This document shows positions 5,467 through 60,695 of a stretch of 64,000 nucleotides of DNA, one piece after another. Every line of letters begins with the position of its first letter. Positions within the stretch are counted from its first letter, which is position 1. Under the pieces are notes generated by a model that made no database searches, was not told the DNA's origin, and was given only the letters and a program-made list of their open reading frames with translations. The stretch is from an uncultured Dehalococcoidia bacterium (GTDB lineage Bacteria > Chloroflexota > Dehalococcoidia > Lucifugimonadales > CAJWER01). The translations under genes were made by a program, and so were the position numbers. The stretch covers positions 1,371,158 through 1,435,157 of the forward strand of contig OY282442.1 in assembly GCA_958296115.1 (NCBI GenBank). Direction: 5' to 3'.

Positions 5467-6021
5467 ATGGACTCGCTTTGGATATACGTCCTGTGGGGAT
5501 TCGGAGCGTACCTGCTCGGCTCCATATCCTTCGGCGACGTCGTGGCGCGCATTATCGGGGTCCAGATACGGGACATGGGAACCGGCAACCCCGGCGCCGC
5601 CAACATGTTCCGAGAAGTGGGCCCGCGCTACGGGGCCCTCGTCCTCGCGCTCGACCTCGCCAAGGGTCTGGCCGTAACCCTGCCCGCCTTCCTGTTGGAC
5701 CTGCCATGGGCCGCGCTGGCCGGCGTATCCGGCGCGCTGGCCGGTCACTTCGCGCCAGTCTTCTGGAGGTTCCGGGGCGGCACGGGCATGGCTGCGGCCA
5801 TGGGCATGGCCTTCGGGCTCGTGCCAGCGGGCGCGCTAATCGCGGCGCCAGTAGCGCTGATTACGCTGCGCCTGTCCAAGAACTCGGGCGTCTCCGGCGC
5901 GCTGTTCTTCCTGCTGGCAGTCGCCGCCGGCTGGCTGATCCACAGGGAGCCAGCTTACCCCGCCATAGTGCTGGCCAGCGCGGCGGCGGTGCTAATAAAG
6001 AGCCGAATCCAGTACCGCTGA
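5467..6021 (+). CDS. plsY: Glycerol-3-phosphate acyltransferase PlsY
   Basis: 184 aa counted from the internal ATG at 5467. Matches the PlsY family: LLGSISFGDVVARI...GTGNPGAANMFR...AGHFAPVFWRFRGGTG. The upstream part of the track ORF is antisense to the HAD gene. Confidence 0.85.
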   Translation: MDSLWIYVLWGFGAYLLGSISFGDVVARIIGVQIRDMGTGNPGAANMFREVGPRYGALVLALDLAKGLAVTLPAFLLDLPWAALAGVSGALAGHFAPVFWRFRGGTGMAAAMGMAFGLVPAGALIAAPVALITLRLSKNSGVSGALFFLLAVAAGWLIHREPAYPAIVLASAAAVLIKSRIQYR

Positions 6022-51439: not shown

Positions 51440-51468
51440 TTGACTCGGCAGGTCTAGCGGCATACTAT
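51440..51468 (+). promoter_or_regulatory. Candidate sigma-70 promoter of the type I R-M operon
   Basis: TTGACT (51440-51445), a 17-nt spacer, and TACTAT (51463-51468). It lies 64 nt upstream of the hsdM ATG. Confidence 0.5.
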
Positions 51469-51531
51469 TTGGGTTCAGGTTCGAGGGGGCTGTGAGCATG
51501 GCCTCGGCGAAGCGCGAGGGGGTTGAGCGCG

Positions 51532-53143
<1,612 letters not shown>

Positions 53144-53151
<8 letters not shown>

Positions 53152-53575
53152 GGCCATGCCACTTGAGTTGGACCACCTGAGGAAATCTATCCAAGCCCTC
53201 TCGGACCTGCTTGCGGTCAGCGACAACGACGAGCGCATGGGGCAGTTGAGCGAGGTCGAGCGGACCGGCATCCGCGCCGGCGTCATCAAGAACTTCGAGA
53301 CCACCTATGAGCTATCCTGGAAGCTGATAGCCCGCTGGCTGAAAACCCACGTCGGTTCCGAAGCCGACGGCGTAACGCGGCGTGAGCTATTCCGACTTGC
53401 CGCTGAAAATCGCCTTATCCCTGACGTGGACTTGTGGATGGGTCATCATGTCGCAAGGAACGACACCGCCCACGTATACGACGAGGGAAAGGCTGATCAG
53501 GTCTATAGAGCCACCATGGACTTCGCGCATGACGCGCGGCGGCTGCTGGAGATCCTGGAAGCGCGGAATGATTGA
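53144..53575 (+). CDS. HEPN-domain protein (HI0074 / nucleotidyltransferase substrate-binding family)
   Basis: 143 aa with the family-typical [13 protein letters not shown] and the Rx4H motif RNDTAH. The start overlaps the hsdM stop (ATGAATAG). Confidence 0.8.
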
Positions 53576-55172
53576 TCTCAACCCGAATCATCTTGTAACG
53601 GTCGAGGGCATCTTGGCCGAGCACGTGCCGGAGTGCGAGGTGCGAGCTTTCGGCTCCCGCGCGACCTGGACCGCGAAGGACTACTCGGACCTTGACCTGG
53701 CGGTAGTCGGCGGCGGGCCGTTGGACATGGGAAGGCTGGGACGCCTGAGGGAAGCCTTCCAGGAGTCCGACCTGCCCATGCGGGTGGAAGCGCTAGACTG
53801 GCACGCCGTCTCCCAGGGTTTCCGGGATGTGATCGAGCGGGGATACGTGGTAGTGCAGAAGGGGGCGGGAGAGTGGCGCGAAGTGGCGCTGGGGGGAATC
53901 GCCGAGATCAACGAAGCTACCTACTCCCCTAAAGAAGGCTGGCCGTTCGTCAATTATCTGGATACCGGGAATATCACCGAGAACCACATATCGGAAATTC
54001 AGCATCTCGTTACCGGCACAGATAAGATTCCGAGCCGAGCACGTAGAAAGGTTAAGCAGGGCGACATCGTGTATTCCACCGTGCGCCCCAACCAGCGGCA
54101 CTTCGGGTTGATCAAGGAAGTACCGGAAAACTTCCTGGCCTCGACGGGATTTGCCGTCATTCGTGGGAAGGCTGATGTCGCTTGCACGGATTTCATTTAT
54201 TGGTTCCTAGCGCAAGACCATGTAGTCGATTACCTTCATTCAATAGCAGAGAACAGCACGTCAGCGTACCCGTCTATCAAGCCTGGCGACTTGGAACAAT
54301 TGGTACTGCCCATGCCGCCGTTGGCCGAGCAGCGGGCGATTGCCCACGCGCTGGGGACGCTGGACGACAAGATTGAGTTGAATCGGCGGATGAATGAGAC
54401 GCTGGAGGGGATGGCGCGGGCGCTGTTCGAGTCGTGGTTCGTGGATTTCGACCCGGTGCGGGCGAAGATGGAGGGGCGGGATACGGGCCTGCCAGCGGAT
54501 GTCGCCGCGCTGTTCCCGGGCCGGCTGGTGGAGTCGGAGCTGGGGGAGATTCCGGAGGGGTGGGGGGTTGGGACGCTTGATGGTATGATAGAGTTGCTGA
54601 GTGGTGGCACCCCCAAGACGTCAGTTGTTGAGTACTGGGATGGGGATATACTCTGGTACACCGCTAAGGACGCTCCCAACCTGAGCGATGTCTTTGTCCT
54701 GGAGACTGAGAGGACCATAACCCAAGCCGGGATTGAGAACAGCGCCGCAAGAGTTCTTCCAGTGGGAACAACGACAATCACCGCCAGAGGCACTGTTGGT
54801 AGACTTGCCTGTCTCGGCATACCGATGGCTATGAATCAGACCTGCTATGGGATTCGCGGCGCTCACGGGTATCCTGATTTCTTCACCTATTGGAACGTGA
54901 GGACAGCTGTGGATGAGTTGCAACAGAGGACTCACGGCACGATCTTTGATACAATCACCCGTCAGACCTTCACCCTCATTGAGATGGCAACGCCGCCTGT
55001 AGAATTGGCGAAGGCATTCGAATCGACGCTGGGGCCTGTGATGGGGCGCATCCGCGGCAATCTTCAGGAATCTCGTACTTTGACCATCTTGCGGGATGCG
55101 TTGCTGCCGAGGCTGGTGTCGGGGGAGGTGCGGGTGGGAGAGGTAAATCGACCTGCGACAAGGAGTGCATAA
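53568..55172 (+). CDS. hsdS: Minimal nucleotidyltransferase (MNT) domain fused in frame to a type I R-M specificity subunit
   Basis: The first ~95 aa carry FGSRA...SDLDLAV (GS...DxD NTase motif). The rest is a two-TRD HsdS with the central conserved helix LAEQRAIAHALGTLDDKIELNRRMNETLE and the C-terminal LRDALLPRLVSGEVRV. The start overlaps the HEPN stop (ATGATTGA). Confidence 0.8.
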   Translation: MIDLNPNHLVTVEGILAEHVPECEVRAFGSRATWTAKDYSDLDLAVVGGGPLDMGRLGRLREAFQESDLPMRVEALDWHAVSQGFRDVIERGYVVVQKGAGEWREVALGGIAEINEATYSPKEGWPFVNYLDTGNITENHISEIQHLVTGTDKIPSRARRKVKQGDIVYSTVRPNQRHFGLIKEVPENFLASTGFAVIRGKADVACTDFIYWFLAQDHVVDYLHSIAENSTSAYPSIKPGDLEQLVLPMPPLAEQRAIAHALGTLDDKIELNRRMNETLEGMARALFESWFVDFDPVRAKMEGRDTGLPADVAALFPGRLVESELGEIPEGWGVGTLDGMIELLSGGTPKTSVVEYWDGDILWYTAKDAPNLSDVFVLETERTITQAGIENSAARVLPVGTTTITARGTVGRLACLGIPMAMNQTCYGIRGAHGYPDFFTYWNVRTAVDELQQRTHGTIFDTITRQTFTLIEMATPPVELAKAFESTLGPVMGRIRGNLQESRTLTILRDALLPRLVSGEVRVGEVNRPATRSA

Positions 55173-56029
55173 TGGCTTTGATACCGCCTTCTTTCCTGAA
55201 CACGGTTGTTGCTTTGGGAAGAGAGTGCCAAGATGGGACAGCCCGATACAACGCAACGGGTTTTCTGTATGGTATTCCCAGTGGTGATACCGACGAGAAT
55301 GGGAAAAATATGTATCACCCTTTCCTAGTAACTAATCGGCACGTGTTCGAAGGGATATTTAAGCATACTGATACACTGTGTGCGAGGTTCAACAAGCGCA
55401 CACAAATTGATGCAAATGTGTACACTATGAAAGAGGGAAATCGCCCATGGACTGTTCATCCGGATCCGCGCATTGATGTTGCGGTCTTGGAAATCGACTT
55501 AAATAGCTTAAGAGCCGACGGTATCGAATACGCATTCTTCCCGGGCGATACGCATGCACTTACGCTCGAGCAAGCCCGTAGCAGTGAGATCAGCGAAGGA
55601 GATGGAGTTTTTGTATTAGGATTTCCATTGGGGGACGCCGGAGATGAGCGGAATTATCCAATCGTGCGACAAGGAATAATTGCCCGTATTCAGAATTGGC
55701 TGAGGGGAGATGCACGTACATTCTTGATAGACGCTTCCATTTTCCCTGGCAACAGTGGTGGCCCAGTTCTCCTTAAACCCGAAATCGCTTCTATTCAGGG
55801 TACACAACGTAATGATAGATGCGTACTAATCGGCATGGTCTCTTCCTACCTACCATACCAAGAAGTTGCTATAAGCAACCAGACCGGACGGACAAGGATG
55901 ATATTCGAAGAGAATTCAGGGCTTGGCACCGTAGTGCCTCATGACGCGATACAAAAGACCATTAGAATCGCTGTTGATAATCTCAGTTCTAGCGAACGGG
56001 TTGCTGCTCCAGAAGAGCAAACCGAATGA
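55172..56029 (+). CDS. Cytoplasmic chymotrypsin-fold (S1, Trypsin_2-like) serine protease
   Basis: 285 aa with no signal peptide. Triad contexts are LVTNRHVF, IDVAVLEI and FPGNSGGPVL. The start overlaps the hsdS stop (TAATG). The gene is markedly AT-richer than its flanks. Confidence 0.75.
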   Translation: MALIPPSFLNTVVALGRECQDGTARYNATGFLYGIPSGDTDENGKNMYHPFLVTNRHVFEGIFKHTDTLCARFNKRTQIDANVYTMKEGNRPWTVHPDPRIDVAVLEIDLNSLRADGIEYAFFPGDTHALTLEQARSSEISEGDGVFVLGFPLGDAGDERNYPIVRQGIIARIQNWLRGDARTFLIDASIFPGNSGGPVLLKPEIASIQGTQRNDRCVLIGMVSSYLPYQEVAISNQTGRTRMIFEENSGLGTVVPHDAIQKTIRIAVDNLSSSERVAAPEEQTE

Positions 56030-56039
56030 AGCCTCCCCC

Positions 56040-56328
56040 ATGACCACCATCACCGAAGCTGACGTCGAGCGGGCGGCCCTGGAATGGCTGGCGGGTGGAG
56101 CATGGGCGAGACATCGCGTCCGACACGCCCGGCGCGGAGCGGGACGATTATGGGCAGGTCGTCCTGGAGGGGCGGCTGCGTGTGGCCGTGGGCCAGACCC
56201 GCCGCGCGGCCAAATTGCGGCGCATCGTCTCGAACGGGCGTGAGTCTTGCGCCCTCGCCGCCCTGCGTGATACACTGGCGCCGAGGCTGGTGTCGGGGGA
56301 GATACGAGTGAGGGAAATTGTGCCATGA
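56040..56328 (+). pseudogene. Chimeric relic: 5' fragment of an hsdR fused to the 3' end of an hsdS
   Basis: 56040-56190 aligns to the hsdR start ([19 protein letters not shown]... versus [19 protein letters not shown]...) with a ~13-nt deletion. 56215-56328 encodes ...[28 protein letters not shown], compared with the hsdS C-terminus ESRTLTILRDALLPRLVSGEVRVGEV. Confidence 0.8.
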
Positions 56329-56777
56329 CCTTGGGTCAGCAGGAATACAAGGCCATTATTAGCGATCCTAACAAAGTCATTCGTGAAAACATCCTTTGGG
56401 AGGGCAATCCCAATTCCACAAGCCGTGAATTCAGAATAGACGTCGAATCCGACGAGGGTTACCCCATTTTTGTAAAGGGCTGGTACAATTCCTCTTCAGG
56501 CAAGTTGTCCTACGCTATCATCCATCGCACCGTGGGCCGAATCCATGGCTTGGATTTGGGAGCAGACCACCGGAACCCGGATGGGAAATTGGTGGGCGAG
56601 AAGCACAAGCACCGCTGGGCGCCGGACTATCGGGATAAGTGTGCCTACGTGCCAGAGGACATTACCGAGACTTGGGACCGTCCAGTTGCCGTTTGGCGCC
56701 AGTTCTGCGCAGAAACGCGTCTGACCCACTCAGGCGCCATGCAGCCCCCTGTAACTCAAAGGGTATTGCCGCTGTGA
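56325..56777 (+). CDS. Hypothetical protein (150 aa) with a His-rich GADHRNPDG-x7-HKHRW motif
   Basis: Low-GC ORF. The ATG overlaps the relic hsdS stop (ATGA) and its own stop overlaps the next start (GTGA). I recognise no family. Confidence 0.6.
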
Positions 56778-57550
56778 ACGTCAACGAACTCTGCATATCC
56801 ATAGGGCAATCGCTGCCGCCCCTGTTTGAGTGCTCGCCGGCCCCGCAAGAGGGAGTACGGGTGCGTACGCCGCTGCTGTATCCCGACGGCGGAGTTGTTG
56901 ACGTTTTTGTACTGGAACGGGGCTACGGTTACACCGTTACCGACTTTGGGGATGCTCTGGGCTGGCTTGGATTGCAATCGGTAAGCAAGCGACGTTCACC
57001 CAAGCAACAATCTCTGGCGCAGGACGTGTGCCAAACGCTGCGCATCGAGTTGGTTCAAGAACAACTGGTTCTTCGCAACGTGCTGAACCATGCACTGGCT
57101 GAATCGGTGTTGCGGGTAGCTCAGGCCGCCGTGCGCGTCTCCGACCTGTGGTTCACTCTGCGGAGCCAATCCCTCCAGACAACTGCTGATGAGGTGGAGG
57201 AGTGGTTACGCGAGAAGCAGATTAACTATGAACGCGCCGTACAGAGACAGGGAAGATCAATGCACACCTGGACGGTCGATTTTGAGACCTACGCCAACCG
57301 CACCTCGCTCGTCTTTTTGCTAAGCACGGGCGCCCGTGGGGCGGCCCGTAGGTTGACTGAGCATGTTTTGTCTGGATGTATGGACCTGAACCACCTCAAG
57401 GCTACCCAACAAGGTCTGTACTTCATTTCCCTATTCGACGATACCGAAGACGTATGGCGGGAGGAGGACTTCAATTTGGTAAACGAGCAATCAGAAATCG
57501 CACGTTGGTCACATTCCGATGAGCTTGAGCGCCTCCTCAGGGCCGCATGA
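56774..57550 (+). CDS. DUF1828/DUF1829-like two-domain protein
   Basis: 258 aa from the GTG at 56774. The N-terminal pattern [38 protein letters not shown] resembles DUF1828. The C-terminal half ([21 protein letters not shown]) resembles DUF1829. The assignment is from memory of family patterns and was not searched. Confidence 0.5.
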
Positions 57551-57563
57551 TCGCCCTCACCGA

Positions 57564-60695
<3,132 letters not shown>

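Follow-up and report, generated by a model that had tools for sequence, protein, structure and literature searches.

We analyzed a 64,000-nucleotide stretch of DNA (the window) from the genome of an uncultured Dehalococcoidia bacterium (contig OY282442.1), whose + strand carries a type I restriction-modification (R-M) operon at 51.5–60.7 kb with the order hsdM – HEPN – MNT::hsdS – cargo – hsdR. The specificity subunit HsdS of this operon is not a plain DNA-recognition protein: the N-terminal 97 residues of its polypeptide are an antitoxin enzyme, a minimal nucleotidyltransferase (MNT), followed by a short linker of a kind that varies between homologues. Comparison of related loci shows the fused state to be the rule for HEPN-MNT pairs embedded in type I operons. 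We consider it probable that the operon has taken up a toxin-antitoxin (TA) pair of type VII and of the HI0074/HI0073 kind, and that the antitoxin enzyme is thereby tethered to the R-M core.

The HEPN protein and the fused HsdS polypeptide

The gene between hsdM and hsdS encodes a single-domain protein of 143 amino acids without an ABC-ATPase domain. It belongs to the HI0074 family (PF08780, E = 5.4e-30; TIGR01987, 70 bits at a cut-off of 55.8) and matches both HI0074 itself (PDB entry 1JOG, E = 2.9e-12) and the HEPN toxin of Legionella pneumophila (8XDJ, E = 5.3e-9). The initial annotation had recognized a HEPN protein at this position by its RX4H motif (RNDTAH), and this identification holds. 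The motif extends to a complete RX4HXY, which is present in 63 of the 72 partner HEPN genes from related loci; the residues corresponding to R105, H110, and Y112 are conserved in 68, 67, and 66 of these proteins, respectively. From this family membership we predict that this HEPN protein acts as the toxin, an RNase, in a TA pair of type VII and, by analogy to its relatives, that Y112 serves as the acceptor of AMPylation.

The following gene is a single open reading frame (ORF) of 534 codons, in which, as read from the sequence initially, no stop codon separates MNT from the first target-recognition domain (TRD) of HsdS. Its residues 1–97 represent an HI0073-type MNT, with a match to 1NO5 that spans residues 2–98 (E = 1.1e-24). 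Together with the 1JOG match of the HEPN protein, this shows that the two form an authentic HEPN/MNT pair of HI0074/HI0073 type. The catalytic residues are found in FG29S30R, D41-L-D43, and E74, corresponding to GS-X(10)-DXD plus a third acidic residue, and the positions G29, S30, D41, D43, D77, and W78 are invariant in all 61 full-length fusions described below.

An AlphaFold2 model of the fusion, based on 79 homologues (mean pLDDT 90.9, pTM 0.77), contains a compact α/β domain at residues 1–97 that is immediately followed by the HsdS fold. In this model, the secondary structure of MNT ends with a strand at residues 94–97, and no helix α-4 precedes HsdS. A Foldseek comparison of the N-terminal domain with the PDB returned HI0073 (1NO5; TM-score 0.94, root-mean-square deviation 1.1 Å, 48% identity) and the MNT antitoxin of L. 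pneumophila (8XEO, TM-score 0.85; also the complex 8XEH), whereas MntA of Shewanella was matched more weakly (TM-score about 0.6). The C-terminal 430 residues resemble the specificity subunit structures 1YF2 (E = 1.9e-26), 5YBB (5YBB_D), EcoKI (2Y7C), and EcoR124I (7BST; 7BST_A). No solved chain among these PDB matches covers both the MNT and the HsdS part. PF01420 (Methylase_S) is found in two stretches of the HsdS part (E = 9e-25), and long helices are modeled at residues 252–292 and 478–518. Judged from sequence and model, the HsdS portion is a complete specificity subunit with two TRDs, encoded in one locus with hsdM and hsdR.

The linker of the window protein, KGAGE, is with five residues the shortest of all fusions examined. 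In the 61 fusions, the linker comprises 5–37 amino acids (median 12) and its sequence is not conserved, a variability that fits a flexible tether, as expected. TRD1 also differs between the fusions, which contain at least four unrelated TRD types, while MNT, the position of the linker, and the EWREV sequence at the start of HsdS remain constant. The TRD shuffling that is typical of working S subunits has thus left the fusion in place.

The ORF could also give rise to two products, if translation of HsdS mostly began internally, close to the junction, so that MNT was present on only a small part of the protein. Candidate signals for this exist at 53840–53875, where GTG codons (V94–V96, preceded by GGGG) lie in a purine-rich stretch. 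These codons, however, belong to the final, conserved strand of MNT (YVVVQ, which HI0073 has as well). Moreover, standalone HsdS homologues begin with M-x-G-x-W, two to three residues before the position of W103, and the fusions have no start codon at this place; a Met anywhere in the junction occurs in only 6 of the 61. A conserved internal start is therefore unlikely. The possibility, raised initially, that homologues always initiate HsdS internally is thus not supported, and we regard a two-product ORF as very improbable.

With their overlapping junction, the HEPN and MNT coding regions are direct neighbors and form a co-transcribed unit of two genes. The HEPN gene starts with ATG at 53144 ahead of the hsdM stop codon (TAG, 53149–53151), resulting in an 8-nt overlap, ATGAATAG; the fusion starts with ATG at 53568 ahead of the HEPN stop codon (TGA, 53573–53575), with the 8-nt overlap ATGATTGA; and the fusion stop codon (TAA, 55170–55172) overlaps the ATG of the next gene at 55172 (TAATG). 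All three junctions thus overlap, as had been noticed at the outset. The overlap ATGATTGA is shared by 67 of 80 related loci and is therefore not due to chance. The initial annotation had placed the features correctly except for the start of the fusion, which is at 53568 and not at 53569. A public gene call (P0121, 547 amino acids) begins 13 codons further upstream (53529–53567), which would extend the overlap with the HEPN gene to 47 nt. This upstream start is probably an annotation artefact, since ATG 53568 is backed by the homologues, most of which begin with MIDLNP at ATGATTGA. At the ends of the operon, the start codon of hsdM is uncertain, the earliest one in the ORF being TTG at 51523, with a promoter-like site upstream of it at 51440–51468. 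The true start of hsdR is likely ATG 57564, where its conserved N-terminus begins.

Recurrence of the fusion

Two sets of loci were compared. The MNT-anchored set comprises 80 loci on contigs of one genome per species, retrieved with MNT. The HEPN-anchored set comprises 80 metagenome loci that were collected with a HEPN alignment to avoid selecting for the fusion; a scan of the metagenome contigs with the single HEPN sequence gave no matches, whereas the alignment-based scan succeeded.

In the MNT-anchored set, 61 of 80 loci encode an in-frame MNT-HsdS protein of at least 480 amino acids. Here, the HEPN gene ends 5 nt past the MNT start in most cases, hsdM is located upstream, and hsdR usually downstream. 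The closest relatives of the window locus come from metagenome-assembled genomes of Dehalococcoidia and other Chloroflexota. Besides these, fusions are found in Poribacteria, Latescibacterota, Acidimicrobiia (Actinomycetota), Acidobacteriota, Nitrospirota, Planctomycetota, Spirochaetota, Nitrospinota, as well as in a number of Beta- and Deltaproteobacteria; the Pseudomonadota are among the phyla represented. The recurrence check proposed with the initial annotation thus gave a positive answer, and it follows that the fusion is not a sequencing error. Such an error would be a frameshift, introduced by sequencing or assembly, that erased the MNT stop codon. Clear cases of frameshifted stubs do exist among the related database proteins; nothing specific points to such an event in the window. 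Since the in-frame fusion occurs in 61 of 80 independent genomes at species level as well as on a finished RefSeq plasmid (see below), and since the AlphaFold2 model is confident across the junction, the probability of an artefact is negligible.

The HEPN-anchored set contains 48 loci with a standalone MNT of about 100 amino acids, 16 with a full fusion, and 3 with a probable one. When both sets were pooled (160 loci), the state of MNT depended on its surroundings: with hsdM detected upstream, 81 MNTs were fused and 5 standalone; with hsdM not detected upstream, 6 were fused and 54 standalone. The six fused loci without detected hsdM are mostly explained by contig ends or by the origin of the record. 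According to these comparisons, HEPN and MNT form a mobile cassette, which in most cases stands alone, whereas in type I operons MNT is almost always found within HsdS. The initial annotation had called the fusion unusual. It is no oddity of this genome: it is the dominant state in type I operons, distributed over many phyla and also represented in RefSeq.

Database searches agree with this picture. With the full-length protein as query, most of the best 120 matches are proteins of 510–600 amino acids that combine PF18765 (Polbeta NTase) with PF01420 at about 98% coverage, several of them encoded on megabase-scale NCBI contigs. A word-free search with MNT alone against 1.84 billion cluster representatives retrieved 3,406 relatives; of the best 149 of these (50%-identity representatives), 61 have at least 480 and 18 at most 130 amino acids. 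Such counts show diversity and not frequency, since fused proteins are split into more clusters by their hypervariable TRDs. A query with the first 125 amino acids matched only proteins of at most 218 amino acids. We rejected this result as evidence against full fusions, since it is an effect of candidate collection: both the full-length query and the word-free search recover hundreds of fusions.

Several other protein forms were seen. Two of them are represented by L027 (6001–7881) and L082 (8001–10691; P0127): variants of 627 amino acids carry two tandem MNT domains before HsdS, and in others, of 820–896 amino acids, the two Methylase_S regions are separated by inserted DUF559 and MTES_1575 endonuclease-like domains. 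Many short metagenome proteins (P0001–P0052, 135–218 amino acids) combine an intact MNT with the first 20–100 residues of HsdS, after which the sequence runs out of frame. They stem either from hsdS genes in decay whose MNT was kept or from long-read indel errors.

Cultured organisms contain both the fused and the unfused arrangement. Plasmid pZMOB01 of Zymomonas mobilis ATCC 10988 encodes an HI0074-family HEPN protein, a fused subunit S (WP_014466389.1, 527 amino acids), and hsdR in this order; the RefSeq label of WP_014466389.1 is only “restriction endonuclease subunit S”, although MNT is located at its N-terminus. A candidate for a further fusion is HsdSp of Z. mobilis ZM4, an experimentally active plasmid-encoded S subunit for which two CDD superfamilies are listed (PMC8432527); its deletion-primer sequences, however, are without a match on pZMOB01. 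The unfused counterpart is found on plasmid pAP1342-3 of Acetobacter pasteurianus (hsdM – HEPN – MNT – hsdS – hsdR), where the same families follow in the same order as in the window. In contrast to the window, however, MNT (101 amino acids) and HsdS are separate proteins, whose genes overlap by 8 nt. Only a minority of operon-embedded cases, 5 of 86, are of this kind. As judged from these sequences, the step from the Acetobacter arrangement to the fused form needs only a small frame change.

The Acetobacter locus also speaks for a neutral origin of the fusion. The pair could be a selfish addiction cassette that inserted between hsdM and hsdS and whose MNT ORF was merged with the overlapping hsdS ORF by a one-base change; the fusion would have persisted since then for lack of any cost, without any role in signaling between R-M and RNase. 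In line with such a hitch-hiker, the pair is often free-standing (the 54 loci without detected hsdM), and the linker is unconstrained in length and sequence. In addition, a neighbor-joining tree of the 98-residue MNT domain interleaves fused and standalone forms (17 parsimony changes), so that the fusion may be easily made and broken rather than strongly selected. The domain is too short for this topology to be trusted on the question of single or multiple fusion origins. On the other hand, neutrality alone hardly accounts for an excess of 81 fused to 5 unfused cases inside operons of many phyla, the fusion has outlasted repeated exchange of TRDs, and variants with tandem MNT domains occur (L027, P0127). 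We therefore regard neutral hitch-hiking as fairly unlikely, though as viable and as the most serious of the competing explanations.

Genes between hsdS and hsdR

The interval from hsdS to hsdR (55172–57563) differs from the rest of the operon by its low GC content (47–59%, compared with 65–70% in hsdM and hsdR). Its first gene, with 47–52% GC, encodes a trypsin-like serine protease of 285 amino acids, whose start is coupled to the hsdS stop codon and for which no counterpart was found in the 80 related loci. It is followed by direct repeats of the hsdR 5′-end and the hsdS 3′-end and by genes for DUF6978 and DUF1828 proteins just upstream of hsdR, which may form an uncharacterized defence pair. 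From this arrangement, the interval looks like two cassettes of the type hsdS-3′ / cargo / hsdR-5′ that have recombined with each other at the conserved ends of these genes. The coordinates of all features are collected in Table 1.

Table 1. Features of the type I R-M operon in the window
Feature	Position	Strand	Evidence or remark
hsdM, type I R-M methyltransferase subunit	51523..53151	+	PF02384 N6_Mtase, E = 2.7e-106; PF12161 HsdM_N, E = 2.8e-27
HEPN gene, 143 aa, HI0074 / NTase_sub_bind family	53144..53575	+	PF08780, TIGR01987
RX4HXY motif of HEPN, R105-NDTA-H110-V-Y112	53456..53479	+	direct reading of the sequence
MNT-linker-HsdS fusion, single ORF, 534 aa	53568..55172	+	stop-free frame
MNT domain, residues 1–97	53568..53858	+	sequence and fold match to 1NO5
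Linker, K98-G-A-G-E102	53859..53873	+	between MNT and HsdS
HsdS proper from conserved W103 (EWREVALG), two TRDs, two long conserved helices	53874..55172	+	PF01420, Foldseek
Trypsin-like (Trypsin_2) serine protease gene, 285 aa	55172..56029	+	PF13365, E = 9e-14
hsdR 5′-end remnant	56040..56196	+	direct repeat, 84–91% identical to 57564–57734
hsdS 3′-end remnant	56264..56315	+	direct repeat, 79% identical to 55090–55141
DUF6978 gene	56325..56777	+	PF22398, E = 1.6e-14
DUF1828-containing ORF, start uncertain	ends 57550	+	PF08861, E = 1.4e-7
hsdR, restriction/translocase subunit	57519..60695	+	HSDR_N, SWI2_SNF2, ResIII, T1RH-like_C

Other cargo occupies the same slots in two of the related operons. 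One MNT-HsdS operon (L081, 9986–12268) carries genes for KwaA, a ThsB-like TIR protein, and 8xMP proteins. The locus L082 (6195–15106) has a Fic gene between hsdM and HEPN, and genes for an AAA_13 ATPase and for AAA_15/21 and DUF4276 proteins between hsdS and hsdR; the latter pair we take to be PARIS-like. The other defence cargo of these operons provides supporting context for the guard analogy developed below.

A possible role of the tethered antitoxin

The closest characterized relative of the window pair is most likely lpg2920/lpg2921 of L. pneumophila (8XDJ, 8XEO, 8XEH), which belongs to the same two families, as does HI0074/HI0073 of Haemophilus (1JOG/1NO5). In Legionella, the HEPN gene comes first and overlaps the MNT gene by 8 bp; the MNT lacks helix α-4, poly-AMPylates Tyr105 of the RX4HXY motif, and binds HEPN tetramers, while the HEPN toxin cleaves rRNA, with a Mg2+ site formed by Q44 and E47 proposed as its active site (PMC11586414). 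The window pair has the same gene order and overlap, the RX4HXY motif, and an MNT of about 100 amino acids with GS...DxD and without α-4. It differs in that its MNT is the N-terminal domain of HsdS instead of a free protein, in its location inside a type I R-M operon, and in a Lys that replaces Gln44 at the metal site. In HepT/MntA of Shewanella oneidensis (SO_3166/SO_3165), the founding type VII system, a HEPN RNase is likewise neutralized by adenylylation of the RX4HXY Tyr (PMC7641770). There, however, the MNT gene comes first, MntA requires an additional helix α-4 for binding, the pair is free-standing and unlinked to R-M, and no match to the window pair was found at the sequence level (E = 0.7). 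Typical type VII antitoxins are small free-standing proteins, in contrast to the window MNT, which makes up residues 1–97 of a 534-residue HsdS polypeptide. The single-chain FhepTA also has MNT as an N-terminal module joined via a linker, and fusion altered the stability of MNT in that study (PMC13000451); its MNT is fused to its own toxin, whereas that of the window is joined to a subunit for DNA recognition that is unrelated, with the toxin as a separate protein.

The distribution of the two genes in related loci is in agreement with a TA pair. MNT lies directly downstream of HEPN in all 80 HEPN-anchored loci where this can be judged, whereas HEPN is undetectable in 9 of the 80 MNT-anchored loci. 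In one of them (L038, ~5990–6010), the HEPN gene is gone and hsdM now ends at the MNT start with the ATGATTGA junction retained. In another and its relatives (L045, ~5985–6010), an unrelated protein of 426–586 amino acids is encoded upstream of MNT; the ATGATTGA junction again survives, and in L045 the upstream protein terminates in a HEPN relic, “LEARND”. Loss of HEPN is thus tolerated while loss of MNT is not seen, matching the prediction for a TA pair with HEPN as the toxin.

The same two proteins were first proposed to be something else, namely an accessory two-subunit nucleotidyltransferase in which HEPN binds the substrate and MNT is catalytic. This idea, put forward for HI0073/HI0074, would assign the pair a different target (an R-M subunit, a nucleic acid, or a small molecule), and the fusion to HsdS would deliver the activity to DNA-bound R-M complexes. 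The names of the Pfam and NCBIfam families follow this line, as does the way in which the 1NO5/1JOG structures were originally interpreted, and the strict conservation of the MNT catalytic residues also speaks for it. Nevertheless, we consider it improbable: close relatives have been identified experimentally as TA pairs with a toxic HEPN RNase and with the RX4HXY Tyr as AMPylated acceptor (PMC11586414, PMC7641770), this motif is conserved in the window pair, and HEPN never occurs without MNT while MNT-HsdS sometimes occurs without HEPN, which follows TA logic.

If the pair is a TA module tethered to HsdS, a mechanism can be outlined from its relatives. The tethered MNT would AMPylate Tyr112 of the co-translated HEPN protein, bind HEPN, or both, and thereby silence an RNase that would otherwise arrest growth. 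The methyltransferase core of type I systems (M2S1) holds one S subunit. Each R-M complex would therefore bear one copy of the silencer of the toxin, and it would probably also carry a bound HEPN oligomer. At minimum, the HEPN-MNT pair would act as an addiction module that stabilizes the operon.

A precedent for a more direct connection is PrrC, a HEPN-superfamily RNase in the type Ic locus EcoprrI, which is restrained by the R-M proteins and freed when a phage disables restriction (PMC3710099, PMC12707154). As in the window, the HEPN RNase gene lies within a type I R-M operon. PrrC, however, is a single ABC-ATPase-HEPN protein that is silenced non-covalently by EcoprrI, whereas the HEPN protein of the window has no ATPase domain and its silencing would be enzymatic, through an MNT that is covalently part of HsdS. 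For the window, an association of the nuclease with the R-M complex is suggested by the covalent MNT-HsdS link. By this analogy, a PrrC-like guard role for the tether is plausible, and it is more attractive than enforced retention of S. The likeliest consequence of the tether, though still with less than even odds, is that the RNase would provide a second line of defence, released in a PrrC-like manner when a phage disturbs either the R-M complex or the operon's expression. A still more specific proposal, which we put forward as a rather doubtful one, is that the intact R-M complex itself is the sensor of the type VII TA switch, amounting to a PrrC-like guard built from other parts and widespread across phyla. 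As long as the complex is intact, the tethered MNT would keep the bound HEPN oligomer AMPylated. If a phage blocked or dismantled the complex, be it by DNA mimics such as Ocr or ArdA, by proteolysis, or by shut-off of the operon, unmodified HEPN would accumulate and translation would be arrested.

Several points weigh against a tethered and functional TA pair in the window, in addition to the mixed MNT tree described above. Toxicity and AMPylation are predicted for this pair from its relatives, and a link between R-M and RNase is conjectured. The HEPN protein carries Lys49 (53288–53290) at a position that is Gln in 56 of 72 relatives and that corresponds in the alignment to Q44 in the Mg2+ site proposed for the Legionella toxin; with Lys at this near-invariant position, the toxin of the window could be attenuated. 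In MNT, the third acidic residue at position 74 is Asp in 59 of the 61 fusions; the window is one of the two with Glu. Since AMPylation is covalent, any trigger would need either de-AMPylation or fresh, unmodified toxin. Finally, MNT is N-terminal, and most mutations that inactivate hsdS spare it, so that a simple addiction to the S subunit does not follow. Enforced retention of S, suggested in the initial annotation, is accordingly poorly supported: MNT stays intact after frameshift or truncation of hsdS, and many database proteins consist of MNT and an HsdS stub.

That HEPN genes, including MNT-associated ones, are embedded in R-M operons was described in 2013, as the initial annotation had stated; R-M-associated HEPN domains are also fused to nucleases, helicases, and ATPases (PMC3710099). 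The text and one supplement of Anantharaman et al. 2013 contain no mention of an MNT fused to a specificity subunit, and no description of an MNT-HsdS fusion was found in the literature searched, including reviews on type VII TA and R-M systems, which is not proof of its absence. From the sequence comparisons, MNT-HsdS is neither a new kind of system nor a peculiarity of this genome; it is widespread and unremarked in the databases. Its components are known and its architecture is robust, while functional coupling of R-M and RNase is a conjecture.

Type VII pairs rank with the most abundant TA pairs of prokaryotes, and no trigger of them is known to us; likewise, of the “guardian” genes hosted by type I R-M operons, we know of few that have been worked out mechanistically. 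With an antitoxin enzyme covalently placed on the specificity subunit, a TA and an R-M system are physically linked in a concrete way. This link is conserved in most operon-embedded cases across many phyla, and it provides a testable hypothesis for the control of the HEPN toxin and the trigger of a type VII system. With Z. mobilis ATCC 10988 and its plasmid pZMOB01, a tractable cultured example of the fused form is available, and the Acetobacter plasmids offer a natural unfused control. The finding also marks out as bifunctional thousands of proteins that bear no label other than “restriction endonuclease subunit S”.

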